Positions 800-63,026 of a stretch of 64,000 bases of DNA are shown piece by piece. The stretch comes from Prorocentrum cordatum (lineage: Eukaryota). The number at the start of each line of letters is the position of its first letter. The stretch's first letter is position 1. The notes under the pieces are model-generated. The model saw nothing but the letters and a program-made list of their open reading frames with translations, searched no databases and was not told the origin of the DNA. A program made the position numbers and the translations under genes. The stretch is taken from the NCBI GenBank assembly GCA_963575745.1, contig CAUYUJ010000114.1, positions 434,001-498,000 of the forward strand, in the 5' to 3' direction.

Positions 800-2098
800 C
801 CGTCGTCACTTTTGGGCTCCTGGGGCGTGAATTTGGAGGAAGTATCAGGCGGGAGCGTCGTCTGTGAGTGAATTGCGAGGAAGTCTCAGGCGGGAGCCCC
901 CTCCCTATGGGTCCCGCACTTCATGTTGGTAATCCGAGGCGGGTCATCGGAACCTTGTAACTGTCGTCACTTTTGGGCTCCTGGGGCTTGGAGGAAGTAT
1001 GGGCTGCCTGGGGCGTGTCCGAGGCGGGTCAGGAATCAAGCGGGAGCGTCGTCTGTGAGTGAATTGCGAGGAAGTCTCAGGCGGGAGCCCCTCCCTATGG
1101 GGCCCGCACTTCATGTTGGTAATCCGAGGCGGGTCATCGGAACCCTGTAACTGTCGTCACTTTTGGGCTCCTGGGGCGTGAATATGGAGGAAGTATCAAG
1201 CGGGAGCGTCGTCTGTGAGTGAATTGCGAGGAAGTCTCAGGCGGGAGCCCCCTCCCTATGGGGCCCGCACTTCATGTTGGTAATCCGAGGCGGGTCATCG
1301 GAACCCTGTAACTGTCGTCACTTTTGGGCTCCTGGGGCGTGAATATGGAGGAAGTATCAAGCGGGAGCGTCGTCTGTGAGTGAATTGCGAGGAAGTCTCA
1401 GGCGGGAGCCCCTCCCTATGGGGCCCGCACTTCATGTTGGTAATCCGAGGCGGGTCATCGGAACCCTGTAACTGTCGTCACTTTTGGGCTCCTGGGGCGT
1501 GAATATGGAGGAAGTATCAAGCGGGAGCCTCGTCTGTGAGTGAATTGCGAGGAAGTCTCAGGCGGGAGCCCCCTCCCTATGGGGCCCGCACTTCATGTTG
1601 GTAATCCGAGCGGGTCATCGGAACCCTGTAACTGTCGTCACTTTTGGGCTCCTGGGGCGTGAATATGGAGGAAGTATCAAGCGGGAGCGTCGTCTGTGAG
1701 TGAATTGCGAGGAAGTCTCAGGCGGGAGCCCCCTCCCTATGGGGCCCGCACTTCATGTTGGTAATCCGAGGCGGGTCATCGGAACCCTGTAACTGTTGTA
1801 CTTTTGGGCTCCTGGGGCGTGAATATGGAAGAAGTATTCAGCGGGAGCGCCGTCTGTGAGTGAATTGCGAGGAAGTCTCAGGCGGGAGCCTCTCCCTATG
1901 GGGCCCGCACTTCATGTTGGTAATCCGAGGCGGGTCATCGGAACCCTGTAACTGTCGTCACTTTTGGGCTCCTGGGGCGTGAATATGGAAGAAGTATTCA
2001 GCGGGAGCGCCGTCTGTGAGTGAATTGCGAGGAAGTCTCAGGCGGGAGCCTCTCCCTATGGGGCCCGCACTTCATGTTGGTAATCCGAGGCGGGTCAC
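800..2098. repeat. ~160-bp tandem satellite, ~8 units
   Basis: ctgtcgtcacttttgggctcc recurs at ~1151, 1312, 1472, 1632, 1793, 1952. Confidence 0.95.
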
Positions 2099-2605
2099 GT
2101 GGCCGTCAGTAGAGGTAAATATCAGCCGGTGCGCCGGCGACTGCTCGTGGCCGTCAGTGGAGAATTGCCGCGGTTCCAAGAGATCTTTCCCACGACCTGG
2201 GCACTCTTTCGGGACTCTCTCTCCTCCTCTTGTGTAGCCTCCTTCCTCCGAGTTGCATAACCTCTGGTGCGCCAGCGACTGCCCGTGGCCGTCAGTAGAG
2301 GTAAATATCAGCCGGTGCGCCAGCGACTGCCCGTGGCCGTCAGTGGAGAATTGCCGCGGTTCCAAGAGATCTTTCCCACGACCTGGGCACTCTTTCGGGA
2401 CTCTCTCTCCTCCTCCTGTGTAGCCTCCTTCCTCCGAATTGCATAACCTCTGTCCAATACAGCTACAGAATTTCAGGCACGATGTCTGCATCGTGCTGCT
2501 CGTTCAAGGACTGTTGCTGCTGATCACTCCTATCATTCACTGTGCTCCACAGAATGGCAGTGCGAAGACGACTGACAAAATGGGCAGAATGGCAGAATGG
2601 CAGAT

Positions 2606-3057
2606 CTGGGAGCGAGCACCTGCAAGGGTTCTCTTTGCCAGGCGGGAGCGAGCACCTGCAAGGGTTCTCGTTGCCGTTTGCCGATCTATCTGGGAGCGAG
2701 CACCTGCCGTTGCCAGGCGGGAGCGAGCACCTGCAAGGGTTCTCGTTGCCGTTTGCGATCTATTGGGAGCGAGCACCTGCAAGGGTTCTCGTTGCACCTG
2801 CTCGTTGCCGTTTGCCGATCTATCGGGAGCGAGCACCTGCAAGGGTTCTCGTTGCCAGGCGGGAGCGAGCACCTGCAAGGGTTCTCGTTGCCGTTTGCCG
2901 ATCTGGGAGCGAGCACCTGCAAGGGTTCTCGTTGCCAGGCGGGAGCGAGCACCTGCAAGGGTTCTCGTTGCCGCTTGCGTTTGGCCGGAGTAGCACCTGC
3001 AAGGGTTCTATTTCCGGCCGCGGGAGCGAGCACCTGCAAGGGTTCTCGTTGCCGCTT
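2606..3057. repeat. Minisatellite of a 32-nt core gggagcgagcacctgcaagggttctcgttgcc (second copy 4634-5118)
   Basis: Core alternates with the linkers aggc and gtttgccgatct(atct). Confidence 0.9.
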
Positions 3058-3649
3058 GGATTACGACGACGACGACGACGGCGACGGCGGCAGCGGCGGC
3101 GAAAAACGACGGCGACGACGACAACAACGACGTACTCTGTTGATTCGTATCGTTTTCACCACCTCTCTAACACCGATGTTGCAATGGACTAAGGGGTCAC
3201 TAACGCAATTTTTTTTTTGGGCGTCGGGGGTTCTCATAGCCGCTTGGATTACGACGACGACGGCGACGACGATGGCGACGGCGGCAGCGGCGGCGAAAAA
3301 CGACGGCGACGACGACGACAACAACGACGTACTCTGTTGATTCGTATCGTTTTCACCACCTTTCTAACACCGATGTTGCAATGGACTAAGGGGTCACTAA
3401 CGCAATTTTTCCCCACATCCAAAGTGGGGTTCTTGTTTTCTCTGCACACCCCCGCGCAGAGAGAGAGATCTCACTCACCCCCTCTTCTCCTCGCACTCAT
3501 TCACACACACATCATCATCACTCGCACTCTCTCACACGCTCACGAACATCATCGTCATCATCGGTATCGGCATCATCCTCATTCAAACATCATCATCGCC
3601 ACCACCACCCACAATCAATCATCATCCTCTTCACCACTCATCTGTAACC

Positions 3650-4128
3650 CTGTAACCCTGTAACTGTCGTTACTTTTGGGCTCCTGGGGCGTGAATATGG
3701 AGGAAGTATAAGCGGGAGCGTCGTCTGTGAGTGAATTGCGAGGAAGTCTCAGGCGGGAGCCCCTCCCTATGGGGCCCGCACTTCATGTTGGTAATCCGAG
3801 GCGGGTCATCGGAACCCTGTAACTGTTGTCACTTTTGGGCTCCTGGGGCGTGAATATGGAAGAAGTATTCAGCGGGAGCGCCGTCTGTGAGTGAATTGCG
3901 AGGAAGTCTCAGGCGGGAACCTCTCCCTATGGGGCCCGCACTTCATGTTGGTAATCCGAGGCGGGTCATCGGAACCCTGTAACTGTCGTCACTTTTGGGC
4001 TCCTGGGGCGTGAATATGGAAGAAGTATTCAGCGGGAGCGCCGTCTGTGAGTGAATTGCGAGGAAGTCTCAGGCGGGAGCCTCTCCCTATGGGGCCCGCA
4101 CTTCATGTTGGTAATCCGAGGCGGGTCA
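3650..4128. repeat. Same 160-bp satellite, ~3 units
   Basis: Near-identical units. Confidence 0.95.
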
Positions 4129-5744
4129 CGTGGCCGTCAGTAGAGGTAAATATCAGCCGGTGCGCCGGCGACTGCTCGTGGCCGTCAGTGGAGAATTGCC
4201 GCGGTTCCAAGAGATCTTTCCCACGACCTGGGCACTCTTTCGGGACTCTCTCTCCTCCTCTTGTGTAGCCTCCTTCCTCCGAATTGCATAACCTCTGGTG
4301 CGCCAGCGACTGCCCGTGGCCGTCAGTAGAGGTAAATATCAGCCGGTGCGCCAGCGACTGCCCGTGGCCGTCAGTGGAGAATTGCCGCGGTTCCAAGAGA
4401 TCTTTCCCACGACCTGGGCACTCTTTCGGGACTCTCTCTCCTCCTCCTGTGTAGCCTCCTTCCTCCGAATTGCATAACCTCTGTCCAATACAGCTACAGA
4501 ATTTCAGGCACGATGTCTGCATCGTGCTGCTCGTTCAAGGACTGTTGCTGCTGATCACTCCTATCAACTGTGCTCCACAGAATGGCAGGCGAAGACGACT
4601 GACAAAATGGGCAGAATGGCAGAATGGCAGATCTGGGAGCGAGCACCTGCAAGGGTTCTCTTTGCCAGGCGGGAGCGAGCACCTGCAAGGGTTCTCGTTG
4701 CCGTTTGCCGATCTATCTGGGAGCGAGCACCTGCAAGGGTTCTCGTTGCCAGGCGGGAGCGAGCACCTGCAAGGGTTCTCGTTGCCGTTTGCCGATCTAT
4801 CTGGGAGCGAGCACCTGCAAGGGTTCTCGTTGCCAGGCGGGAGCGAGCACCTGCAAGGGTTCTCGTTGCCGTTTGCCGATCTATCTGGGAGCGAGCACCT
4901 GCAAGGGTTCTCGTTGCCAGGCGGGAGCGAGCACCTGCAAGGGTTCTCGTTGCCGTTTGCCGATCTGGGAGCGAGCACCTGCAAGGGTTCTCGTTGCCAG
5001 GCGGGAGCGAGCACCTGCAAGGGTTCTCGTTGCCGCTTGCGTTTGGCCGGAGTAGCACCTGCAAGGGTTCTATTTCCGGCCGCGGGAGCGAGCACCTGCA
5101 AGGGTTCTCGTTGCCGCTTGGATTACGACGACGACGACGACGGCGACGGCGGCAGCGGCGGCGAAAAACGACGGCGACGACGACAACAACGACGTACTCT
5201 GTTGATTCGTATCGTTTTCACCACCTCTCTAACACCGATGTTGCAATGGACTAAGGGGTCACTAACGCAATTTTTTTTTTTGGGCGTCGGGGGTTCTCAT
5301 AGCCGCTTGGATTACGACGACGACGGCGACGACGATGGCGACGGCGGCAGCGGCGGCGAAAAACGACGGTGACGACGACGACAACAACGACGTACTCTGT
5401 TGATTCGTATCGTTTTCACCACCTTTCTAACACCGATGTTGCAATGGACTAAGGGGTCACTAACGCAATTTTTCCCCACATCCAAAGTGGGGTTCTTGTT
5501 TTCTCTGCACACCCCCGCGCAGGAGAGAGATCTCACTCACCCCCTCTTCTCCTCGCACTCATTCACACACACATCATCATCACTCGCACTCTCTCACACG
5601 CTCACGAACATCATCGTCATCATCGGTATCGGCATCATCCTCATTCAAACATCATCATCGCCACCACCACCCACAATCAATCATCATCCTCTTCACCACT
5701 CATCTTCACCACCACTCATCATCCTCATCCTCATCATCGTTGAG

Positions 5745-6885
5745 TAAAGTGTGAGGAAGTCTCAGGCGGGAGCCCCCTCCCTATGGGGCCCGCAGATCAT
5801 GTTGGTAATCCGAGCGGGTCATCGGAACCCTGTAACTGTCGTCACTTTTGGGCTCCCCAGGCCTGAAAATGGAGGAAGTCTCAGGCGGGAGCCTCGTCTG
5901 TGAGTGAATTGGGAGGAAGTCTCAGGCGGGAGCTCCCTCCCTATGGGGCCCGCAGATTATGTTGGTAATCCGAGCGGGTCATCGGAACCCTGTAACTGTC
6001 GTCACTTTTGGGCTCCTCAAGCCTGAATATGGAGGAAGTCTCAGGCGGGAGCCTCGTCTGTGAGTGAATTCTGAGGAAGTCTCAAGCGGGAGCCCCCTCC
6101 CTATGGGGCCCGCAGATCATGTTGGTAATCCGAGCGGGTCATCGGAACCCTGTAACTGTCGTCACTTTTGGGCTCGTCAAGCCTGAATTTGGAGGAAGTC
6201 TCTGGCGGGAGCCTCGTCTTTGAGTGAATTGTGAAGAAGTCTCAGGCGGGAGCCCCCTCCCTATGGGGCCCGCAGATCATGTTGGTAATCCGAGCGGGTC
6301 ATCGGAACCCTGTAACTGTCGTCACTTTTGGGCTCCTCAAGCCTGAAAATGGAGGAAGTCTCAGGCGGGAGCCTCGTCTGTGAGTGAATTGGAGGAAGTC
6401 TCAGGCGGGAGCCCCCTCCCTATGGGGCCCGCAGATCATGTTGGTAATCCGAGCGGGTCATCGGAACCCTGTAACTGTCGTCACTTTTGGGCTCCTCAAG
6501 CCTGAATTTGGAGGAAGTCTCAGGCGGGAGCCTCGTCTGTGAGTGAATTGGGAGGAAGTCTCAGGCGGGAGCCCCCTCCCTATGGGGCCCGCAGATCATG
6601 TTGGTAATCCGAGCGGGTCATCGGAACCTGTAACTGTCGTCACTTTTGGGCTCCTCAAGCCTGAATTTGGAGGAAGTCTCAGGCGGGAGCCTCGTCTGTG
6701 AGTGAATTGGGAGGAAGTCTCAGGCGGGAGCCCCCTCCCTATGGGGCCCGCAGATCATGTTGGTAATCCGAGCAGGTCATCCAAAACCTGTAACTGTCGT
6801 CAATGTTGGGTTCTCGCGCTGCCAGAACGCAGTTCCCAGGCCACATTTTGGACGCAACAAGGAAGTTTTTGGGCTCCTCAGGTCG
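5745..6885. repeat. 160-bp satellite, variant subfamily, ~7 units
   Basis: Shared diagnostic changes gcagatcatg and ctcaagcctgaa. Confidence 0.95.
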
Positions 6886-6889
6886 CCGA

Positions 6890-7364
6890 GGTGCTGCGAC
6901 AGGGCGCCGAAGGCGCCGACGACGACGGCCAGGCCGAGGCGCGGGCGCGGAGCTTGCTGATGTTCAGGCCCAGCGAAAGGGAGTTCACATGGCAGAGCTC
7001 GGGGGCGCACAGCGTGCGCCGCTCGGGGTTCACCCTGACGCACGCGTCCTACCTGACCTCCACGCTGTCGCAGGGCCAGACGCTGCGCAAGGGCGTCACC
7101 ATCGACTGCGCGAGAGACGAGGACGCTGGCCGCACGGGCATGTCGGACGAGCAGTGGTGGCTGCACCTCTACGTCATGTTCTCCCGCGCCACGTGCATGC
7201 GGAACATGCTGATCCTGCGGCCGCCGCCGCGAGAGTTCCTGGAGTGCGGGCCGCCGGCGTCCCTGCGGAAGGCGCTCCTGGAGTTCGACAAGAGAACGGT
7301 TTTGTCCAGGGCGGAGGCGAAGCAGCTCGCGGCAGAGCTGGGCTTCGTGCTGCCTTCCGCCTGA
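6890..7364 (+). mobile_element. Helitron/PIF1-type helicase C-terminal fragment
   Basis: HASYLTSTLSQGQTL and LYVMFSRAT resemble the PIF1/RepHel motifs AxTxHKSQGQTL and LYVALSR; intronless; 5' end fused to satellite. Confidence 0.75.
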
Positions 7365-7818
7365 GCGCGGCTGCGCCTCGCTCGAAGCCCGCGGGGTTGT
7401 CCCAACGGCTTGGTCTTGCGCGCCAACGGCTCGCGGGGTTGTCCCGACAGCCTGGCCCGCGGGGTTGTCCCAACGGCTGCGCGACGTGACCAGTAGAGAA
7501 CGCGCCTGTGCTGGCCGTGGCGGCGACGGCGCCGAGGAACATCGACATGCGCGCTCATGCAACAGGAAGGGGAGGAGGTGGCGGGGCGCGGAACAAACAG
7601 GGGGGCGAGGATGGGGACAACGTAAGGAGTGGAAGGGGGGCCCGCGCCAAGGCGAGAGGAAATATACGCAGAAGAGACAGCCAGGACGCCTCACCAACCA
7701 CGAGGACGACGCTGATGGCTTTTTCCAGATTCGCCCAGAGGATTCTTATGTGGGGTTCTTCCGTCGGAGTAATTGTGTGTGTTTATTTGTGTGTCCCAGG
7801 GCCCCATTACCCCTGCAG

Positions 7819-8183
7819 GTGGAGCAACGCAAGCAGAGCCTGTGCGACGAGATGCTGGCCCGCGCGGTAGAGTTAAGTTGGGCCTGTCCATTTACAGTGG
7901 GAATATTCAAAAATAACCAAAAAATAGGCTGGGGACTTGTTTATAGTATTTTTGGGCATCTTTGGGGCATTGTTGGGGTATTTTTAATTTTTCGTCCAAA
8001 ATCCCCCTGTACGGGGACACGCCCGACTTAGCGGTAGAGCGGTTTGGGGAGGCTCACAGCGCGGACGTGCTGGAGCGACTGCTGGGGCCCGCTGCCGCCG
8101 AGCTGCTGGCGGCGTGGCGCCGGGGGCTGCCGGCGTGGCGCCGGGGGGAGCCTGGCCAGCTGGACCTGGGGGCGCGAGGCTGA
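7819..8183 (+). CDS. Possible terminal exon of an unidentified gene, split by a MITE with a 9-bp TSD
   Basis: ctgcAG acceptor; removing 7873-8039 gives VEQRKQSLCDEMLARAVERFGEAHSADVLERLLGPAAAELLAAWRRGL...ARG*. Confidence 0.45.
7873..8030. mobile_element. MITE family A (TIR TTAAGTCGGGC...); other copies at 188-355, 41300-41488, ~52953-53097, and fragments at 36100-36500
   Basis: Terminal inverted repeats with an AT-rich core; this copy is flanked by gcggtagag direct repeats. Confidence 0.85.
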
Positions 8184-9289
8184 TCCGCCGCCACAAGGCA
8201 AGCACGGTTTGAGGGCTCTCATGGCCTTGGCTGCGGCTCCGGGGAAGGCCACGGGGTCCAGAGCCCATCTCTTTTAGGGCCCGCCTCCCTCATGCCACTC
8301 TACAGGCCGCCAGGATGGGCTTGCAGTAGATGGGGTCCGTGGGTCACGGGTCGCGTCGCCGACGACTCTGCGATGCGGCTCGATGTTGAAGCCAATGTTC
8401 TCGACGCTGGCGTCGCCGATGCGTCGGCGATGCGGCGCGATCCCCTTACCCCGTGTATTAGGACCCCATTTTGGCAGCCTCCAGCTACTGGTTCTGAAGA
8501 AGACTAGTAACATGATCGGAGGACCGCGTGGTCGTCTTCGGTCGTCACTGGGCCCCTCTGACGGCGCCTCAGGCGCCGCGCCTGGCGCCAGGGAGGAGGT
8601 CCAGCACCGATCCAAGAAGCCCGCGCGGACCACCAGAAGTAGGAGGAGGAGGACGAGGAGGAGGAGGAGGAGGAGGAGGAGGAGGAAGGGGAGGAGGGAG
8701 AGGAAGGGGAGGAGGAGGAGGAGCAGGAGGAGGAGGAGAAGGAGGAGGAGGGGGAGGAGGAGGAGGAGGAGGAGCAGGAGGAGGAAGGAGGGAAGAGGAG
8801 GAGGAGGAGGAGGAGGAGGAGGAGGAGGAGGAGGAGGAGGAGGAGGTCTGCCCTTACCGCGCGCTCTTACGATCCTTTGCCTGTATGCCCCAGCGACGAA
8901 GCTAAAGCTTTGGTAGACCGCCCGGCCATCCTGCGTCAGTGTGTCGACTAGCGGCGTGCGCGCCGCCCGGGCCGTGCGCATTTCCGCCTTGGTCCACCGT
9001 TGGCTTTGTCCAGGGAGGAATGGTCGAGGAGGAGCAAGTCCGGCGCTTTATGCCAGACCTGTCTCCGACTGTTTCGTATATTCCCTGTGTTCTTGCCAAG
9101 GGCGTTTCTAGATTTCGGCATGTTGCGGTGTGTGTGTGTGTGTGTGTCAGTATCTTCCTACGGCCACTTGCTCGGCTGGTTTGCGCTTTGTGACGCTGTA
9201 AGACGCAGCGTCGCGTCGTTTCCTGACCTCGCAACGCTAGGCGGGCGCTCTTCAATCTATTATGCGGCCTGCGGCAAACCCCGCCATCG

Positions 9290-9960: not shown

Positions 9961-10355
9961 TTCTCGTGGAGGGGTGATTGTTTTGTCCGACCCCCTCTTG
10001 CTGGTGTCTCTCTGACTCTTCAGTTGGCTCCCTCCTCCCCTCAGCACCCGCGCGCCGCGCAGCACTCGGCTTTGCGCCAACGGAAAACAGTAGAAACAGG
10101 TGAACGAGGCAGGGGACCAACCCCTCCCGATCGCCGGAGACAGTGGCGTCTTGCGCGCCTGGGTGTTGCCACCCCCTCCTGTCCTACTCCTCCTCTCACT
10201 CTCCTTCCTCCTCCTCTCTCCTCCTCTCCTCCTCCTCCCTCCCTCCTCCCTCCCCGCCTCTCCTCCCCTCCTCCTCCTGCTCCTCCTCCTCCTCCTCCTC
10301 CTCCTCCTCTCCTCCTCCTCCTCCCCCTCCTCCTTCTCCTCCCCCTCCTCCTCCC

Positions 10356-12830
10356 GCGTACGGGTCCGTCAGGTTCCTCTCCCAGGCGCTCACCAAGGCT
10401 GGGGTTCTCTTGGGCAGGCTCTGCAACAAGGCGCACTTGAGCATCGCAAGCAAGAGCAAGATCATCGCGGGGGACCCTGGCTTAGCAAAGGACATTGCGC
10501 GCAAGTTGGCACAGCACAATATTAAGATCACTGTAGCACAGAAAGCAGTCGATCTAGGCACCGACAGAGGCACGAACATGCGAGCACGACCTAAAGCAGC
10601 AGCACGTCGCAAAGCAGCATGGAAGCAAGTAGGCCGAGCTCGGAAGCTTATTGGAGCTGGCAGAACAGGCAGAGCAGCAGCACGTCGCGTGATACATCGT
10701 GGATGTTATGCAAAGGTGCAGTATGATGCAGCTGTGTATGGTATGAGCCCTTCTGCAGTGCAAGCTTGGCGCAGAGCTATAGGAGGCACGTTCACGATGT
10801 CGGTCCGTGGCCGGTGCCTCGACACTTTTTTGCAGCTGGAGCTTGGAGATCAAGATCCAGCAATTTTGCAGGTTTTTAAGATGCTCGACAGCTGGATGGC
10901 CATTCTTGCGTCAGGAGCTGAAGCACGAGCGTTTGCAGCACGGGACTGGTCGCAGCACGTGGCTAAGGCTAGAGAAAATCCTAAGCATCGTTGGCGCAGA
11001 ATCACAGGCCCCACCAGAGCTGTAGTGAACACCCTTTTGGACATCAACTGGGACCCCATTGGATCTTGGCATTGAGTTTCTGATCTTGGGAACGTCTATC
11101 AGGCTACTCCAGAGGTCCTTGAAGCAGGTCCACTAGATCTAGATGATATCCGTCAAGACCTAGCCGATTCAGTTCGTCGGGTTCTTTGGAAGCGAGCAGC
11201 AAAGCATTATGAGAGCGCAGATGTTGCTAACGGAGTAGACCTAACTGATGTACGACAGCAGCTACGACGAGCTAGAGATAAAGACCAGCATAAGTGGGCA
11301 GGAGCTTTAGTCACCGTGTGCTGTGGTGGTCAGTGGGCTAGAGAGAGAGTTCAAAGCATCATCAACCCGCCTGATTTTTCTGTTGTGTGTGATCGCTGTG
11401 ATTGTGGACGACCAGAGTCTACCTTCCACCGACTATGGGAATGTTCCGCGAACGACGCCTTGCCCTCGACCACCAGCATCGAGGCATATGTGCACCGTGC
11501 TCGCACCCAGGTGGATTCACAGCCTTCAGTGTGGCTTCGGGGCCTCACTCCTTCTTCGTGGACACAAGTTTCGCTACCGCCCGACGAGGCGGACATTTTT
11601 GTGCACAGCCACGGCTTCTTCCCCGACGGCGCAGACCTGATCGTCGGTGCAGGTGATGCCTCGGGGGGTCAATACTCGGATCAGGCCAGATTCAGGAGAG
11701 TGTCTTGGGCTTATGTCGTCTTCGAGGAGTTCGATTTAGGAAACCCAGCTCCGTCCCTGGCCTTGTCAAGGGTTTCCTCGGGAGCCACATGGGGACCCCA
11801 GACTATCAACCACGGCGAGATGATAGCGCTCTTGAGGTTCCTGGAGGAGGCCCCTGTGGGCCGACCGCTTGTCTTCGTCACGGACTCGTCGTACGTCCAG
11901 AAAAACGTCAATAAGGTCCTCTTGGATTTCTTCCCTGCTGGATTTAGGAACGAGTGGCGTCGAATTCAGCGGCTTCTTCGAGAGAAGCCGACCGTTATCA
12001 TCAAGATCGAGTCGCACATGACTCCCGAGCAGGCTGCAGAGAAAAAGGAGCTTGTCTTTGCTTGGGTTGGGAATAAGGCAGCTGATGAGTTGGCCGAGCA
12101 CACGGCCAAGAACATACAGCTGCAGGCGGGGGAGGTGGAGGCGGTCCAGATTTCTGAGGCCCTGACGCGCGCTGTGAGAATTCGGGCTTGTGAAGTTTTC
12201 CTCTCGAGATTTTCGGAGGCTTCTGGAGACAATCCCCAGGCCCCTAGAGCTCGAAAGAAAGCCAAAGCCAAGCCGAAACCAGCCTTTCCTCCTCCTCCTC
12301 CTCGAGTTTTCAACCCTCGCCCCAAATTAGCTAAGCAGCTTAGGGAGTCGGCGCGCAATATGATTCCTGTAGGAGAAGGTCCAGACTCTAGGCTCTATTG
12401 TAATAGTTGCTGCTCGGTCATTACTGTAACCTCGCACGGTAATATTCCGTCCCAGGAGTTTCTGGCCTCCCCGTGTGTTCCTGCGAAACCCCGTGCAGGA
12501 TATGAGGGAGCGAAGTCCCTCCAGAATGTGTACATCGGTGCCAGGTATGTTGACCCATCTCATGATATGGTCATGTCTGCCAAGGGTACTTACATATGTC
12601 TGACCTGCGGCTCACACGCTACAAGAGCGGGTCAGAATCTTTTCAAAGAATGCAAGAAGGCCACGTCGACAGGGTCGGCCTATCTTGCCAAATTCACGAG
12701 AGGGGAAGTTTAGCTTCCCTGCCTTTTCGACCCGCGAGAAGCGTCTCGATAGGAACTGGCTTTTCTGCCTCCCTTAATCGAAGGGCAGGCTACCCCCCTT
12801 TTTTAGACAGACCAATGGTCAACTGCGTGT
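10356..12830 (+). mobile_element. 5'-truncated non-LTR retrotransposon (RT C-terminus, RNase H, Zn fingers, 3' UTR); one in-frame TGA at 11073-11075
   Basis: ORFs 10143-11075 and 11316-12713 share a frame with no other stop. Motifs AVDLGTD, CDRC..STFHRLWEC, GDASGG, TINHGEMIAL, FVTDSSYV, KIESH, GNKAADELA. Flanked both sides by (CCT)n. Confidence 0.9.
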
Positions 12831-13066
12831 CCTCCTCCTCCTCCTCCCCCTCCTCCTCCTCCTCCTCCTCCTCCCCCTCCCCCTCCTCCTCCTCCTCTTC
12901 CTCCTCCTCCTCCTCCTCCTCGACACAGCCCTGCGCGACGATGAGTCTCGCCGCACACCTTTGAATGCAATGGGTGGCGCTTCCCCTTTGATGCGGGGCC
13001 ATTACCACTTGCGCCACCATGCACTCCCGTTCACCCCTCGGGTGAAACAAAAGAAACCCCAACGAG

Positions 13067-16000
13067 TTACGTGACAGAGGAGCCCGACTCTCCAGCGCGA
13101 ATCAGGAGGCCCGAGCGGAGTGGCTGCACCAGAGGGCGCCACTTCTTGTTCACAGAGAACCGTGCGGGTGTGCGGCCAAGGTTCGACAAAACCCTCGCTC
13201 CCCACGACTTCGGCTGCGGCGGCCCCGCGCAGCAGGTGGAGAGCGAGGCCGAGACCAGAGTCCCCCCACACCCGCACACAACACACACAACACACCACAT
13301 CCGCCCAGCCTCCCCGCCCACCTGGAACGGATGAATGACATGCTGCCTGCCTGGCGCCGACGCCACTCGCGCACATGCGAGGTCGGCGCGCGAGAGCACG
13401 GGCGGCACGACGGCAGGTGGCGGCATCGCGACGAGGGGCGGCAGGCGGGGACCACGCGCCCGCGCCGTCCTCTCCTTGTCTGTGACATGCACGGCGTCGA
13501 GGTCGGCCATTACAGGCCCAATCTTGGCGACCCATGCAGCAAGACGAGAGAGAACCTTAGCCTTGGCCTGATGCGCCTGTCGCACTGGCAGGGGTACTCT
13601 CGATCTGTCTGCCTGCCATCGTGCCCAATCATCTGCACGCATATTACCTTCAAACTCAAAGGGGGAGATCTCGCCTCGCTGGAGGCTAGCACGCGTGCTG
13701 TGCGCCTTGACCTTGCGCACATCCACATGCCCGAGACCCCCCCATTCGTCGATCTGCAGCCAAATCTGAACCCAAACTTCGGCCCAGGCACTGCGGCTGC
13801 TGCAACAGTACTCGCGCCCGCGCACATGCAACCCGTCGTGCACGAAAGCGCTGTCAGTGCACATGATCGTGCCAGGGGTGCAGTGCTGCAAGGCTCGCAA
13901 CAACGCCACGAGCTCGGCAGCGTCGATATCGGCACAGGCCATCACAAGCGTGCCGCAAAACACTGAAAGCGTCCTGAACGGATATTCAGGCTGCACAGCA
14001 ACCAGGGCCCAAGCGAGGGCCTGGGAGGGCCCAAGGAGGTCCTGGTCCATCCAGGACCCGCCCAGAAAAACATGCCCCCCCATGTCGGTGGGCCCGCCCG
14101 AAAACCACCTGGCCGGAGGCTCGAGGGAGGGAGGGGGAGCAGCAGCAGGGCAGAGGAGCCTCTCGGCAAGGAGGCGAGGGAGGGTGGAAGTGGATGCTTG
14201 CACCAGCCCAGTCAAAAACTCTGGAGGCCCTCGTGGGGAAGCAGCTCCTCGTGCCTTCCGCGCGCTCCATGTCTGTGCAACAAAGTCCCTGGAGCGTCCT
14301 GACAGGCCAGGCACGTGGGCTGAGAAACCATACCGCACTCCCATTGCCTGTGCTGCGGCCACTGCCCTCCAGCAATCACAGATCGAAGGTAGCCTTTCTC
14401 TTGAGGCGAGAGCTTCTTCGATCGCAAAAGAGAGAGGATGGGGTCAAGGTTGCATCCGTTAGCCAACTCAGGCACACCCTCACGCTCAGCAACTTTGGCC
14501 CACAACCAATCTTGAATCACCCGACAAAGCCATGTGCGGACAGTGCGTGGAGACTGCTCACGCACGCTAATCGCACCAATTTTGGGATGATCCCAATAAA
14601 AACCATCCATGGAAAAACCCAGGCGCTTCGCAGTGGCCACGCCGGCCGAAAACGGGCCTCGGACGGCAGCCCACGGGTTCCCATGGTCCCTGAAGAGTTG
14701 CCAGGCCTCCTGAAGACCTTGCTCCAAAACGCGCCTGGGCCGCAGATCATCCCAGACAGCAGTGGCATAGGCCAGAAGCGGATCCAACTGCAGCTGAAAA
14801 GCAGGATCGCAGGAGGGCTTATCGGACAGCATCAGAAGCAGAGTGACACTTTTTTCCCGCGAGGCGATTGCTCTGCACGTGCGCCTGCAAAGACCGAGCC
14901 TCGCGTAACAAAGTAGAGTTCGTGCCGTGCACGCTGCCCCCATACTTGACGGAGGCCATGACAGCGGACTGAATCACGTGGTGAACCCTGCGCTTAGCAA
15001 TGTGATTACCTAAACTCACAAGCTTGCGAGCCCGAGCACGCGCTGGACTCCTGCGCTCGCGACGTGTAGCTTGAGACATAACACGCGCAGCAGCAAAATC
15101 GATCCCAAGATTACGCTCATGGCTCACCCCTTTGACCTCGTAGCGGGCCAGCCTGCGCACCAGGGAGGCACGAACCAGATGCGACGACCCCACGACCTTC
15201 GACTTACGACGGGCGACAGGAAGATGAACGGCCTCGAGCTCCTGATGCAGCAAGCACGTGGCACCCGAAAGATCGGCAATGACATCACAATCTCGACCTA
15301 CATGATGCAAACCGAAGTCGTCCACAACAACACCCAGTCGCACCAGTCTATAGCGATCCACGGCCCTGTCGACAGGGCCAAGGAGAATCATCTGCAACAT
15401 AAGCGTGGCAAAGTGACAGCCAGGCAGCACAGCCTGCAGAGTGCACACAGGTTCGGACACAGCATTATCCAAACTTAAAACCCGCGGAAGGCGGTAGAGC
15501 TCAACGAGGAGCTTCAGCTGGCGGAGTGGAAACCCCGACTCCGACGCAGCTCTTACCAACTCACTGTGTCTAATGTGCTCGAAGGCCTTCTGAAGGTCCA
15601 GCAGCACCAAAGCACTGGACATGTCACGGGAAAGCGCCCATTCAGACGAGGCGGCTTGCACCCAGACCAGCTTGTCGCTGCTGCGGCCTGAGGTGGCCCA
15701 ACAATATGGGCGCGCGTGTGCAGCCTGCCACTGGGACACTAATGACTTCCGCAGCCTACCCTGCACTCGCGCCAAGATATGGATGAGGGCTATGGGGCGC
15801 AGCCCCCCATCACGTTTGGCAAGAAAAACAACCTTGGTCCAGATGGTGGGCCACGAGCACGAGCTTTCAACAACAGCCAACACGTCCAGGAAAGCATCAA
15901 GGGCCTGGTCCGAGAGCACGAGCAACTGTCTGGGGCTGATCTGGTCGAAGCCACACCCTGACCGCTTGGGAAAGGACTTCAGGCATCTCTTTAAATCGTC

Positions 16001-17482
16001 CAGGGAGGGCCTGGGAAACTCTGGCCCTAAATCTGGCCAACAAATCTCATCCTCGAGGGCGCCCACCTTCCACCGCCCAGCCCACTCCTCCTCCAAAAGC
16101 GAAACCTCCTCCTGTAAGGTGGCAGGCGCTCCTGAGGGGGACATGCTGCTGGCATGCCAGGGGGTGGCTGGCTTGCTACATGCGTACAGGGCAGCTCCTC
16201 CATTAAGTGAGTGCGCTTGCACCCACTCCTTCCAATTCTGATTCTTGGCCTTCTCGGCCATACGATGCTCTAAAGCTGCTTGCTTGTGCGCTAGCTTGGC
16301 GAGCGCAGAAGCAAGAGGATATGTCAGCTCACGTGCATACTCCAGCAGGTGCAGCCAGGGTTGAGACTTGTCTGCTTCAACCTTGGCCTTCTTGGCCAAG
16401 CCGGGCAAGCTTCGGGCCAAATTCAGCGTTCCAGAACGAAGGGCCCCAGGTTGCCAGACCCCAAGGCCATCCAAACATCGGGCGAGGAGACGCCACCAAA
16501 GAGCCCCTGGAGACAGACGGGGAAAGGCAAGGTCCCTAGGGGCTTTAGGCTTGCAAACTTGAAAGCGCGGGCCCTCAGACCTGCCGATGTACTCGCTGTC
16601 AGTCTCGAGGTCGAGGCCGTAGACGTCTGCCCAGTCGCGCTCCGCGAAGTCCAGCCATAGCCGCCAGGCGGCATCGAGAGGTAGCCCATTGCGTCGCAGA
16701 CAGTACTGCTGCCAAAGATCGCTTGGGTCCAGCGCGCGGCAGCCCATGGGTACATCCTGCGGCAGCCGCTTAGGCACCCTGGCCACCAGGTGCGCCATCT
16801 CGGCCACGGTGCGCGGCCGCAGAGTAAGCACCACAGGGAAGTGCGGCGACGTGCCCACGTCAAACAGCACCTCGGCCTTGGCCCCATGATGAAGGGACCG
16901 TGACATCACGAAGTAGTCAATACAACGACCAGCGCTAACCGAACTGTTCGTGCAAGTGGCGCAGCTCGGTGCAACGCATACGGCGTCCATGCCCTCTGTC
17001 CATTCAGAACCCACCAGCGTGTCAGGCAGCAGCTGAAAGTCACCACACAAGACGAAGGGCATCGCGATCTGCTTGAGGACACAGCCAAGATCCTCTAAGA
17101 TCTTCCAATTTCGAGGGCCTAACTCTTCACTGTGATGCATGTAGACGGTGGCAAGAGCAACACCACCTGGTATCAGCCCAGAGCAGTGCATGACCCTGGC
17201 CCTGCCTGCAGCGACAACCTTCGGCACCAGCTCGAACTCGGCGAGCCCAGCAGCGGCAGGAACCATGTGCATGATACCGCCAGAGGTGCCGCCCTTTTGC
17301 GTGTCCACCGCAGGGCAGCAGGAGGAACGCCAACCAATCTTGCTAAGCCTGGACTCCCAAGCTACACATTCGGGCTCTCGTAGGTGATGCTCCTGAACCG
17401 CCACAGCTCGCGCAGCCCGCACGCGGGTATGCTTCAGCAGCGCCTCGAGGCCAACTTTACCTGTCACATTGCACGTCACCAT
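13067..17482 (-). pseudogene. LINE ORF2: AP endonuclease, reverse transcriptase, Zn knuckle, RNase H and Cys-rich C-terminus; frameshifts near 14850 and 14200-14300
   Basis: EN: TCNVTG, AVQEHHL, LCGDFQ, CIDYFV, SPHFPV. RT: GLRPIAL, LLDLQKAFEHI, QAVLPGC, VVDD, RNLGIDF. Knuckle: CLAC..TLLHR. RNase H: VFLGGS, AAELVAL, CTDSAFV, KVKAH, GNMRADDWA. Confidence 0.92.
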
Positions 17483-17519
17483 AGAAAACGATTCACATTG
17501 AGAGGCTCTGCTGGCTGCA

Positions 17520-18557
17520 TCAAAGACGAGGTCGCTTTTTTGCAGCTTCCAACAGAGCATCGAAGAAGCCTGCCACCAGCTCATGCTTGACCCCGTGAGC
17601 CTCGGCCACCTGTTGGTAGAAGGGGGCGTCGGAGCCGTTGGCATCGCCTGCAGCCTGCTGCTTCTGGCTCTCGAGCCACGCCAGCATCTGTTCATGTTGC
17701 TGTTGCTCACGTCGGTCTTGTTCGGCAGCATGTCGAGCCTCAGCCTCAGCAGTGGCAGCAGCGGCGGCTGCGGCGGCAGCGCCTGCGGCCCCAGCCTCGG
17801 GCGGGAGGCTGGCACCGCCTCCAGGAGCGTCCGCAGCGCCGTCGCCATCAGCAGCATCACCCATGGGAGCGTCCGCTGCCTCGGGCACGACCTCAGGCTT
17901 GGGTACGAGGGCCTGCAGGGCGGGTATGAGGCCGCCGAGCTGCTCGCCAATGCCTTTGAGCCTCTCGTCGCAGCTGAGGCCCTGCACGAGCGACTGGAGC
18001 GCGGCCACGGGGTCGGCGGCATGCGCTGGTGCCATGCTGGAGTAGGCACGTGCGGCCTTGGCTGCCGCCTCCTTGCACTGCTTGTCCAACATGTCAAACT
18101 CGGATTTGGCCTTAACCGCCGCGGCAACAGCTGCCATGGCGGCTTCGTTGGCCTTGTGATACTTGCGCTGAGCCCTCGCCAGCTGATCATGAAGCCTGTC
18201 TTGCTCGATTCTCGCACTCTTTGCCGACGCCATGGGGTCGCCTTGAAGCAGTGACCGCTGCGCCACCACACGCCCGACCGCCTTGGCGGGCCACCCCTCA
18301 GAGAGCTTGGCAAAGTCCGCTGCGGACATCCTGGCATAGATCTCGAGCTGACCATCGTCGAGAGGCGGCCCTGGCACCTTGGCTGGCTTGGACGCAGGCG
18401 GCCCGTTGACCCACTGCCCCAGCTTGCGCTCGCCGCGCGGAGGCTGAGGTGTGGTGCCCTTGGCCCGCCCCCAGACGCGGCAAGCCTCCCTCGACATGTA
18501 GTTGAACCGATACCCACATTTCTTATGCGAGCAAGCCCAAAGCCTGAAGTCCGCCAT
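17520..18557 (-). CDS. LINE ORF1 (~345 aa): N-terminal RanBP2-like zinc finger plus coiled coil
   Basis: First ATG downstream of the SL; MADFRLWACSHKKCGYRFNYMSREACRVWG (last Cys replaced by W); heptad-rich middle. Confidence 0.75.
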   Translation of the reverse strand: MADFRLWACSHKKCGYRFNYMSREACRVWGRAKGTTPQPPRGERKLGQWVNGPPASKPAKVPGPPLDDGQLEIYARMSAADFAKLSEGWPAKAVGRVVAQRSLLQGDPMASAKSARIEQDRLHDQLARAQRKYHKANEAAMAAVAAAVKAKSEFDMLDKQCKEAAAKAARAYSSMAPAHAADPVAALQSLVQGLSCDERLKGIGEQLGGLIPALQALVPKPEVVPEAADAPMGDAADGDGAADAPGGGASLPPEAGAAGAAAAAAAAATAEAEARHAAEQDRREQQQHEQMLAWLESQKQQAAGDANGSDAPFYQQVAEAHGVKHELVAGFFDALLEAAKKRPRL

Positions 18558-18684
18558 CGCGCCTGAGCCGTGATTCGCACAAGGTCGTGAGGGCGGAAGC
18601 CTCAGTACTGTACCAAAAATGTGTGGTGCCTTGCGCACCGAAGCAGGCGGGGCCGCGGACTCCCCACGCCAGTTTGCACAAATC

Positions 18685-18703
18685 CTTGAGCAATGCCTCC
18701 GGA
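18685..18703 (-). other. Degenerate relict spliced leader TCCGGAGGCATTGCTCAAG directly 3' of the intact SL
   Basis: Aligns to the SL with 2 substitutions and a 3-nt deletion; keeps the TCCG start and GCTCAAG end. Confidence 0.75.
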
Positions 18704-18725
18704 CTTGAGCCAAAATGGCTACGGA
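18704..18725 (-). other. Perfect 22-nt dinoflagellate spliced leader (DinoSL) TCCGTAGCCATTTTGGCTCAAG
   Basis: Plus strand reads cttgagccaaaatggctacgga, the exact reverse complement of DCCGTAGCCATTTTGGCTCAAG. Confidence 0.97.
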
Positions 18726-19037
18726 CCTCCTCCTCCTCCTCCTCCTCCTCCTCCTCCTCCTCCTCCTCCCCCTACCCCTTGTCGCTGGCGCTCCGCGAGG
18801 GCGGAGTGGTTGGAGTGGAGGGAGGGCCGGCCCCTGAACGGGGCCGCGCCTCCCCCCTCTGGAGCGCCGGGTGGGGCGGCGGGGGGCGCGCGGGGGCGGC
18901 AACGGGGGCGCGGGGGGGAAGGGCGCTGAGCAGGCGGGGAAGGGGTGCGTGAGTGCGTGAGTGCGTGGTCGTTATTGTGTGGGTGTCTATGGATTTGTGT
19001 GTGTGCGTGTGTGTGTGTGTTCATGTCGATGGATGTT

Positions 19038-19109
<72 letters not shown>

Positions 19110-19549
19110 GAAGTGGTGATTTTAGTCTACGGTGGTGGCGGCGCGTGTGCGCGCACGGTGGTGGCGGTCGTGGTTGCGTCGGCGGTGGCCGCAGGGGCAG
19201 GCGCGCGCGGCGCCCGCAGGCTTGCGCGCAGGAGCGCGCGAGCGCGCCCGTGTGCAGGGTTGTCTTGCTTGCTGTCTGGATTTTGGACGTCATGTATGCT
19301 GAGTTTGAGTCCCGTTTGGCGTTCACTCATTATCGGAGGTTTGGGGGGTGAGATGGAAGCGGAACGGAGATCCCCCGCCGGGAGATCGCTTTCGGTCTCG
19401 GGTTCATGACGCTCGTGCGGGCGAGGCGAAGATGCATGGGTTGGCGACAGGAATGACTTCGCTGTGGCCAGGGCTGGTCAAGACAAAAGACCGCCTCCAG
19501 TGGGCCAGCATGGCCGAGGGTGTCCCGCCGTGGTGTCCCGTTTGTGTTG

Positions 19550-23862: not shown

Positions 23863-63026
<39,164 letters not shown>

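Follow-up and report, generated by a model that had tools for sequence, protein, structure and literature searches.

A 64-kb stretch of genomic DNA from the dinoflagellate Prorocentrum cordatum (contig CAUYUJ010000114.1 of assembly GCA_963575745.1, positions 434,001 to 498,000 of the forward strand; hereafter the window, numbered from 1 to 64,000) holds a 5.8-kb non-LTR (long terminal repeat) retrotransposon on its minus strand that begins with the complete 22-nt spliced leader (SL) of dinoflagellate mRNAs, DinoSL, and ends near 12921. We consider it quite likely that this long interspersed nuclear element (LINE) moved through an SL-trans-spliced RNA, with its reverse transcriptase (RT) reaching the capped end of that RNA, the new copy integrating at a purine microsatellite, and the SL being renewed in each cycle while the sequence behind it decays. 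This reading draws on the sequence anatomy of the element, on a relic of a second SL directly behind the intact one, on a simple repeat of one kind at both flanks, on the recurrence of an SL head in two other LINE lineages, and on the membership of the element in a multicopy family.

A complete spliced leader at the 5' border

The DinoSL occupies 18704-18725 on the minus strand and, by direct reading, consists of the 21-nt core preceded by T at position 1. This core match is the only one in the window, even when up to three mismatches are allowed, and none of 100 dinucleotide shuffles matched. An initial annotation of this DNA had described an exact, complete DinoSL on the minus strand after a purine-triplet tract, with no GT donor or intron of an SL-RNA gene behind it and with ~150 nt to the start of the first open reading frame (ORF1). 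Each of these points proved correct: the SL follows directly on a pure (AGG)14 microsatellite (18726-18767, minus strand), and the distance from its end to the ORF1 ATG at 18557 is exactly 146 nt. The sequence directly 3' of the SL reads TCCGGAGG and contains neither a GT donor nor SL-gene intron sequence. In the SL-RNA genes found on other contigs (38 copies), the SL is followed by a GT donor and, ~30-60 nt further on, by a T-run. A DNA-encoded SL at the 5' end that lacks the GT and intron of SL genes is what marks DinoSL-tagged retro-copies, and the window element carries one.

LINEs of the SLACS/CZAR/CRE type in trypanosomatids and NeSL-1 in nematodes insert at a fixed site into SL-RNA genes and split the gene. 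They resemble the window element in being LINEs that are physically joined to SL sequence, and SL sequence adjoining a LINE is what would be expected if the window element were a site-specific insertion of the same kind. They differ from it in that the window SL would derive from an RNA intermediate, with a purine microsatellite as the probable target. A site-specific insertion is also contradicted by the whole 22-nt exon standing before the element, by the lack of a GT or intron-like sequence behind the SL or past the 3' end, and by (AGG)n on both sides. The upstream (AGG)n is unlike the sequence before the 38 SL genes, position 1 is T rather than A, and a tandem SL relic is present. We therefore give an insertion into an SL-RNA gene practically no weight and agree with the initial annotation that the CRE/SLACS/NeSL elements represent a different arrangement. 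Template switching of the RT onto SL donor RNA was also considered and rejected, as it would bring intron sequence, of which there is none.

A decayed second spliced leader behind the intact one

Immediately after the intact SL lies a degenerate but full-length SL relic (18685-18703, minus strand) that aligns with the whole SL from SL position 1; 17 of its 19 aligned bases equal the SL, with one 3-nt gap. Its local score is 21; across both strands of the window, the other 42,614 windows of 30 nt score 20 at most. A relict SL behind an SL is a further mark of DinoSL-tagged retro-copies, and here it is found in a LINE. Because the decayed SL stands behind an intact one, the intact SL appears to have been joined to an RNA that was already headed by an SL, indicating at least two rounds of trans-splicing and retro-copying in this lineage.

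Adjacent relics were found in 11 of 96 nuclear-like SL copies from other contigs. In seven of these 11 the relic starts at SL position 8, after the internal AG of the SL, and in one it starts at position 1. The window relic, full-length and beginning at position 1, is therefore of a rare kind. For a relic to start at SL position 1, the flank has to offer an AG, as a purine repeat like (AGG)n does.

Coding sequences of the element

The 5' untranslated region (UTR) measures 146 nt with the relic included (18558-18703, minus strand) and leads into ORF1 (17520-18557, minus strand; 345 amino acids plus stop), which encodes a zinc-finger motif followed by a coiled-coil and an Ala-rich region. Alignment of its relatives identifies the N-terminal motif as RanBP2-like, with the fourth Cys replaced by W in the window copy; window ORF1 itself has no Pfam match. 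A word-index search with ORF1 returned no match, probably because the Ala-rich part swamped it, since a full HMMER scan of 1.84 billion representatives recovered 27 relatives at E<=0.001. A profile of these relatives gave only 2 matches in the word-index search.

ORF2 lies on the minus strand in three parts. Part 1 begins with the ATG at 17482 (14852-17482) and comprises an endonuclease-like N-terminus and then the RVT_1 region (15817-15191). Part 2 (14269-14853) continues in another frame after a 1-nt frameshift near 14850, in an A-run, and has a Cys-His motif at its end. A second frameshift falls between 14269 and 14173, near 14228, and part 3 (13067-14173) contains the RNase H region (13939-13616) and a Cys-rich C-terminus, ending in a stop codon at 13067-13069. 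Given the two frame changes, ORF2 aligns end to end with the intact proteins P0004 and P0005 (1479-1545 amino acids) at 37-38% identity, including 38% identity across 897 amino acids of P0004. A 3' UTR of ~146 nt without poly(A) follows (12921-13066, minus strand). The initial annotation had called the element a full-length LINE, which is right for its layout of 5' UTR, intact ORF1 and an ORF2 that comprises endonuclease-like, RT and RNase H parts. It has to be qualified for ORF2, which is broken by the two frameshifts; that annotation had overlooked them, along with the SL relic and the 3' (AGG)n tract that matches the 5' one.

The RVT_1 match of window ORF2 (E 1.2e-5, 25.6 bits) is under the Pfam cut-off of 29.6, and its RNase_H match (26.5 bits) is over the cut-off. 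Together with the P0004 alignment and the strong RVT_1 match of a relative on contig L268, described below, the RVT_1 match supports an RT domain in ORF2, as expected of a non-LTR retrotransposon of the apurinic-endonuclease (APE) type. No Exo_endo_phos match was found in window ORF2 itself in Pfam at E<=0.1, and its N-terminus aligns to a region of P0004 with a weak Exo_endo_phos match (E 7.7e-4, under the cut-off). The case for a putative endonuclease in window ORF2 thus comes entirely from relatives, weakly from P0004 and clearly from L268. A word-index search with ORF2 gave only 3 matches, and a profile of the ORF2 alignment found no relative in the viral, metagenome or genome contig sets and no match in the PDB at E<=0.01.

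When the element was compared with the window by blastn, it matched only itself and had no second copy there. The self-match alone means that the element has no LTRs; the only repeats at its ends are the microsatellites.

Simple repeats on both flanks

The 3' flank is an imperfect (AGG)n tract (12831-12920, minus strand) of the same motif and strand as the pure tract that ends at the SL. The window contains ~20 AGG/CCT-type microsatellites, and by a rough estimate tracts of this type cover ~5% of it, so that both junctions would fall at such tracts in like orientation by chance in well under 1% of cases. With one kind of microsatellite at both flanks, a target-site duplication cannot be delimited. 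An (AGG)n tract may have been the insertion site, or the element may have carried an (AGG)n tail that paired with a like target. Microsatellite-targeting and microsatellite-tailed LINEs likewise have a similar simple repeat at their 3' end and at their target; here the window element has (AGG)n and L268 has (AG)n, and target and tail are both possible.

The 3' part of a different, convergent LINE occupies 10104-12713 on the plus strand (RNase_H E 6e-6, with a weak match to P0006). Its 3' end adjoins the (CCT/AGG)n tract at 12831-12920 from the opposite side, which favors the tract being an insertion target.

Spliced leaders in two other LINE lineages

A scan of genome contigs for the SL core found 19 loci, of which one (L258; the whole contig is L268) has a LINE relative on the same strand. 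L268 is 9096 nt long, has a GC content of 70%, and is filed in a bacterial metagenome-assembled genome (MAG) to which it is evidently foreign. It opens with an imperfect (AG)n / AGAGAGAC repeat (1-116), followed by the SL core (117-137, 21/21), ORF1 (231-1343) with a Zn_ribbon_RanBP match (E 1.4e-7), and an ORF2 frame that is open throughout (1358-8968). ORF2 includes Exo_endo_phos (amino acids 1193-1366, E 5e-9), RVT_1 (amino acids 1679-1893, E 5.4e-11) and RNase_H (amino acids 2242-2381). After 8968 comes a short 3' UTR ending in AAAAA, and then (AG)35 (9005-9074). L268 and the window element have the same layout: a purine repeat, the SL, a zinc-finger ORF1, ORF2, and the same repeat again.

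The two elements are otherwise distant. The RT region of L268 is 26% identical to window ORF2 (E 2e-10), blastp gave no alignment between the two ORF1 proteins, which share only the zinc-finger and coiled-coil architecture, and the similarity of the 5' UTRs is not significant (p 0.8). Between ORF1 and the endonuclease part, L268 contains an internal, near-full SL relic (~3939-3958, score 28). Codon-position GC indicates that 1672-3756 is coding in another frame, giving a 694-amino-acid ORF of unassigned kind, and a 207-nt tandem repeat is located at 4371-4784. We read L268 as an older SL-headed LINE that gained upstream sequence later through a more distant acceptor. A three-ORF LINE would also fit, as would joint retro-copying of a LINE and a gene upstream of it.

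A third lineage is represented by P0015, a 268-amino-acid protein from a 946-nt contig that is 34% identical to window ORF1. It alone among the ORF1 relatives extends far ahead of the zinc finger in the same frame, and DNA no more than 2 edits away from the 22-nt SL could encode its residues 6-13. Of the 15,616 other 8-residue windows in the analysed proteins, none came within 2 edits, the minimum being 4. The peptide is situated 54 codons before the residue aligned to ORF1 residue 5, and the first SL codon of the window is 60 before it. The SL-like peptide is preceded by MGGEK, whose back-translation is purine-rich.

Family copies in public sequencing runs

Sequencing runs were compared with the element by sampled words. 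Run X1 (DNA) contained 62% of them and may be the source sample, hence not independent; two metagenome runs and one run from another organism contained 6-19%. In X1, 295 contigs match 12900-18900 at a likeness of at least 85%, with 74 at 99% or more, 67 at 95-99%, 79 at 90-95%, and 75 below 90%. The element therefore belongs to a multicopy, diverged family. Contigs from X1 and X2 have one base fewer at 14850, and contigs from X1, X2 and X3 have an additional T behind 14228. Both changes are of the kind that removes a frameshift, indicating either that copies with an in-frame ORF2 exist or that the assembly is wrong at the two sites. Summed depth in X1, a figure that is not copy number, falls from 79.6 (12900-13100) to 3.6 (18528-18728, the 5' UTR bin), a pattern that 5' truncation would give. 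An apparent joint of 12922 to 17747 in X2 falls in low-complexity, GC-rich sequence and was disregarded.

Public protein sets also include near-identical or related copies (P0012, P0021, P0030) whose ORF1 C-terminus passes directly into ORF2 sequence; in P0012, a segment with 100% identity to ORF1 residues 291-344 is followed by the ORF2 N-terminus. Such fused proteins imply that deleted or frameshifted family members exist.

These data bear on whether the SL head could be an artefact, either an SL-primed full-length cDNA or a chimeric join at a microsatellite that entered the assembly. The junction is known from the assembly and sits at a 42-nt microsatellite, where misjoins can arise, and a similar caveat applies to the SL-bearing retrotransposons of Schistosoma in the relevant passages of Boroni et al. 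2018 (PMC5832876). However, the element has no poly(A) at its 3' end, it has (AGG)n at both ends as a real insertion would, L268 shows the matching layout on an independent contig of another assembly, and X1 contigs cover the 5' UTR bin. We regard an artefact as very improbable.

DNA-encoded spliced leaders elsewhere

Distinct SL copies from IMG/VR, metagenome and genome contigs were classed by downstream sequence and local GC. Position 1 is A in 37 of the 38 SL genes, defined by an SL followed by GT and a T-run, and in 135 of 139 AT-rich copies. The 99 nuclear-like copies have T in 56 cases, A in 28, G in 8 and C in 7. T is also found at position 1 in the window element and at two loci described below, L185 and L189. 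T in place of the gene-encoded A would fit reverse transcription across a modified cap-adjacent base.

In the metagenome set, 14 of 72 nuclear-like SL copies directly follow a simple repeat, compared to 41 of 3130 positions drawn at random from these loci (Fisher p 5e-12). Repeats abutting retro-copied SLs (L120-L245) are (AC)n, (GT)n, (CT)n, (ATC)n, (TA)n and (GGGT)n. L185 (in minus orientation) and L189 are units of 3.3-3.5 kb that consist of (AC)n, T plus SL, one long ORF, AAAA, and (AC)n again. Their long ORFs have no Pfam match, and the two units give nothing below E 0.3 against the LINE proteins and are unrelated to each other. An SL head with a like repeat on both flanks is thus common to two LINEs and two retrogene-like units.

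The AT-rich copies form a group of their own. IMG/VR contigs L001-L119, mostly from giant-virus MAG bins with 17-30% GC, carry the exact DinoSL core directly behind recurring AT-rich motifs. From such an SL the first ATG is a median of 47 nt away, and of 126 ORFs beginning at a first ATG, 76% have a length of 100 amino acids or more. Among the Pfam matches downstream of these SLs are DUF4116 repeats, CCCH and RING fingers, NADAR, and ABC_tran. It seems that giant viruses, presumably those infecting dinoflagellates, encode the host SL in their own DNA at the beginning of many genes, and no title describing this was found in a literature search.

The AT-rich, giant-virus-like contigs, which encode the SL directly before genes, are in line with the alternative that the LINE inherits its SL as DNA and uses it as a promoter or start element, in which case transcription would begin at the SL or immediately ahead of it and a cycle would need no fresh trans-splicing. 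In the same vein, the discussion of DinoSL relicts by Song et al. 2017 (PMC5585692) proposes that they aid retrogene expression and sit where a promoter is expected, and a passage in PMC9651163 repeats the idea that the TTTT motif of DinoSL substitutes for a TATA box in retrogenes. Such inheritance is hard to square with the perfect SL of the window element (22/22) and of L268 (21/21 core) when the relic has 2 substitutions and a 3-nt gap. The two elements lack significant similarity in their 5' UTRs and are 26% identical in their RTs, which is better explained by renewal from the host SL RNA, and T at position 1 is typical of retro-copies rather than of encoded SL genes. An SL inherited as DNA is accordingly improbable.

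A different alternative is that the family uses an internal promoter, and that the window copy and its relic-bearing ancestor come from rare read-through transcripts trans-spliced at the border, with the SL having no role in the life cycle. The window holds a single copy, and the X1 depth in the 5' UTR bin relative to the 3' end (3.6 versus 79.6), though not copy number, suggests that few copies may reach the 5' end. Any dinoflagellate nuclear transcript is expected to be trans-spliced, as stated in parts of PMC5585692 and PMC12014239, and only one LINE was found among the other surveyed SL copies. Nevertheless, one lineage acquired an SL twice in succession at an identical border, an SL also heads a LINE of a different family in L268, and P0015 has an SL-compatible peptide at the homologous place. 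With an SL or an SL-compatible sequence in three lineages, rare accidents are hard to accept, and we consider this one-off origin unlikely.

Other features of the window

Just upstream of the 5' (AGG)n tract, the GC-rich sequence at 18787-18885 has a very high summed contig depth in all four runs, reaching 2536 in X1 compared to 3.6 to 80 over the element, and its copies diverge past 18834. This stretch is either a short repeat of high copy number or sequence of low complexity, and it ends in (AGG)n. A partial SL-like stretch at 8465-8480 on the plus strand (10 consecutive bases of the SL middle, score 20) stands ~170 nt before an (AGG)n tract at 8641 and may be an old relic of another retro-copy. 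On the same strand, 41579-41733 has a weak RNase H-like match to P0005 (E 0.001) and is followed ~800 nt later by a 210-nt (GGA)n tract at 42524-42736; this region may be another LINE 3' end with a similar tract. A shared 3' end was looked for by comparing the flank before the 18767 tract with that before the 42526 tract, and only 14 nt were alike (E 1.8). Long tandem arrays repeat every 160 nt (1035-6810, three blocks), every 77 nt (25270-27158) and every 10 nt (31724-31924). An Rfam H19_2 match in 12500-19300 scored 23.5 bits against a 50-bit cut-off and was taken as chance.

Relation to known elements

The window element combines two known things, LINEs and SL-tagged retro-copies, and was foreseeable in principle. 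It resembles the SL-tagged retrogenes described in the relevant parts of Song et al. 2017 (PMC5585692) in having a DNA-encoded SL at the 5' end without the SL-gene intron, and in having a tandem SL and relic, the mark of repeated retro-copying. It differs from them in that its RNA itself encodes the machinery (endonuclease, RT and RNase H), in that its relic is full-length from SL position 1, and in that its 3' end has no A-run or poly(A).

SymbioLINE and other LINEs of Symbiodinium, as presented in the LINE passages of de Mendoza et al. 2018 (PMC5890265), share the order Exo_endo_phos, RVT_1, RNase_H and the absence of poly(A), and their UTRs are described there as conserved. The spliced leader is not mentioned in the text passages on SymbioLINE and occurs 0 times in three supplementary files (PMC5890265). 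SymbioLINE is further set apart by its DNMT, in contrast to the zinc-finger/coiled-coil protein encoded by window ORF1 (PMC5890265). L1Tc/ingi elements with Pr77 live in a host whose mRNAs are all trans-spliced and thus face the same problem of obtaining a translatable 5' end; L1Tc solves it with an internal RNA polymerase II promoter and unspliced transcripts, whereas the window element carries the SL itself (PMC1874656).

A related case comes from Schistosoma mansoni, where six SL-bearing (retro)transposon genes have been suggested to be trans-spliced, retro-transcribed elements (Boroni et al. 2018, PMC5832876). In the passages of that paper on these genes, the SL is internal to the gene models, assembly chimeras are not excluded by the authors, and there is no relic series, flank analysis or recurrence across families (PMC5832876).

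In dinoflagellates, the term 'RNA-dependent DNA replication' is enriched among SL-tagged genes, in a portion of the paper that does not analyze the elements themselves (Song et al. 2017, PMC5585692); this enrichment hints that RT genes carry SLs. Statements in PMC6050394, PMC5585692, PMC12014239 and PMC3942190 treat the enzyme behind dinoflagellate retroposition as an open question, with an LTR copia element favored in PMC6050394 and PMC3942190 and LINEs proposed in PMC5585692. A search of open-access full text and bioRxiv, preprint supplements aside, found no description of a dinoflagellate LINE that starts with an SL.

A model for replication through trans-spliced RNA

We propose that the element is an autonomous dinoflagellate non-LTR retrotransposon whose RNA intermediate would be its mature, SL-trans-spliced transcript. 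The RT would copy this RNA to its capped end, yielding a new DNA copy headed by the 22-nt DinoSL, and this copy would integrate in an (AGG)n microsatellite, which would afterwards be present on both sides. An SL-headed ancestral copy would have been transcribed from outside the element, and a new SL would have been added at an AG exactly at its 5' border. The DNA-encoded SL would also bring two acceptor AGs of its own, one inside it and one at its end, which would allow a read-through transcript to be re-capped. The relic, combined with transcription from outside, implies that trans-splicing rather than transcription initiation would set the 5' end in this LINE group. If every cycle takes a fresh SL from the host SL RNA, this would explain why a perfect SL stands beside a decayed one and why perfect SLs occur in families with unlike 5' UTRs.

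A trans-spliced RNA intermediate is well supported at the level of sequence. The initial annotation had proposed that the RNA of the element underwent trans-splicing and was copied as far as its 5' end; this proposal gains strength from the exact SL without an intron, T at position 1, the degenerate second SL, and the relatives L268 and P0015. We infer which acceptor was used, as well as insertion into a pre-existing repeat rather than pairing by a tail made by the element.

Several observations weigh against this model. Trans-splicing of the element RNA is deduced from DNA alone, and the (AGG)n/SL junction is taken from the assembly alone, with read contigs compared outside the repeat-bearing interval 18719-18784. 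The 3' end of the window copy lacks the A-run present in L268, L185 and L189, and this copy is the only one in the window. In L268, no significant relic follows directly behind the SL (score 8), and ~3.5 kb separate ORF1 from the endonuclease, with the extra ORF at 1672-3756 and the tandem repeat in between; L268 may be a composite in which an upstream unit and a LINE were retro-copied together. The SL of P0015 is a back-translation, this lineage being known from the protein alone. A relative of the window LINE followed just one of 232 other distinct non-gene SL copies (L258/L268), which is also the one case among the 19 genome-contig loci. LINE relatives were found behind none of the 134 IMG/VR SL copies, tblastn gave 0 matches behind the 79 nuclear-like metagenome SL copies, and Pfam detected no RT in 50 downstream ORFs, although most of the contigs surveyed are short.

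A broader form of the model is possible, and we advance it tentatively, giving it less than an even chance. There may be a group of dinoflagellate LINEs with no promoter of their own that land in purine or other microsatellites, are transcribed by read-through from the host, and are excised and capped by SL trans-splicing, and the same endonuclease and RT may insert SL-capped mRNAs and so be the source of SL-retrogenes. The acceptor AG would come from the repeat or from the element's own DNA-encoded SL. If a more distant acceptor were used, sequence from upstream would be taken up as well; the internal relic and the additional ORF in L268 suggest as much. It is plausible that trans-splicing makes an internal promoter unnecessary, and also plausible that the RT of the window element has a role in forming SL-retrogenes; circumstantial evidence for the latter link comes from L185 and L189, the two non-LINE SL units with a microsatellite on both flanks.

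Implications for dinoflagellate retroposition

As we read it, the window LINE records in its own DNA that its enzyme copied an SL-capped RNA to the very end, and did so repeatedly. This bears on the question of which RT makes the thousands of SL-tagged retrogenes in dinoflagellates, and the simple repeat on both flanks is an insertion signature common to LINEs and to SL units that are not LINEs. The arrangement also suggests a way for a LINE to live without an internal promoter in an organism in which every mRNA is trans-spliced. If a promoterless LINE group does exist and its machinery also inserts mRNAs, the long-sought source of the SL-retrogenes would be identified.

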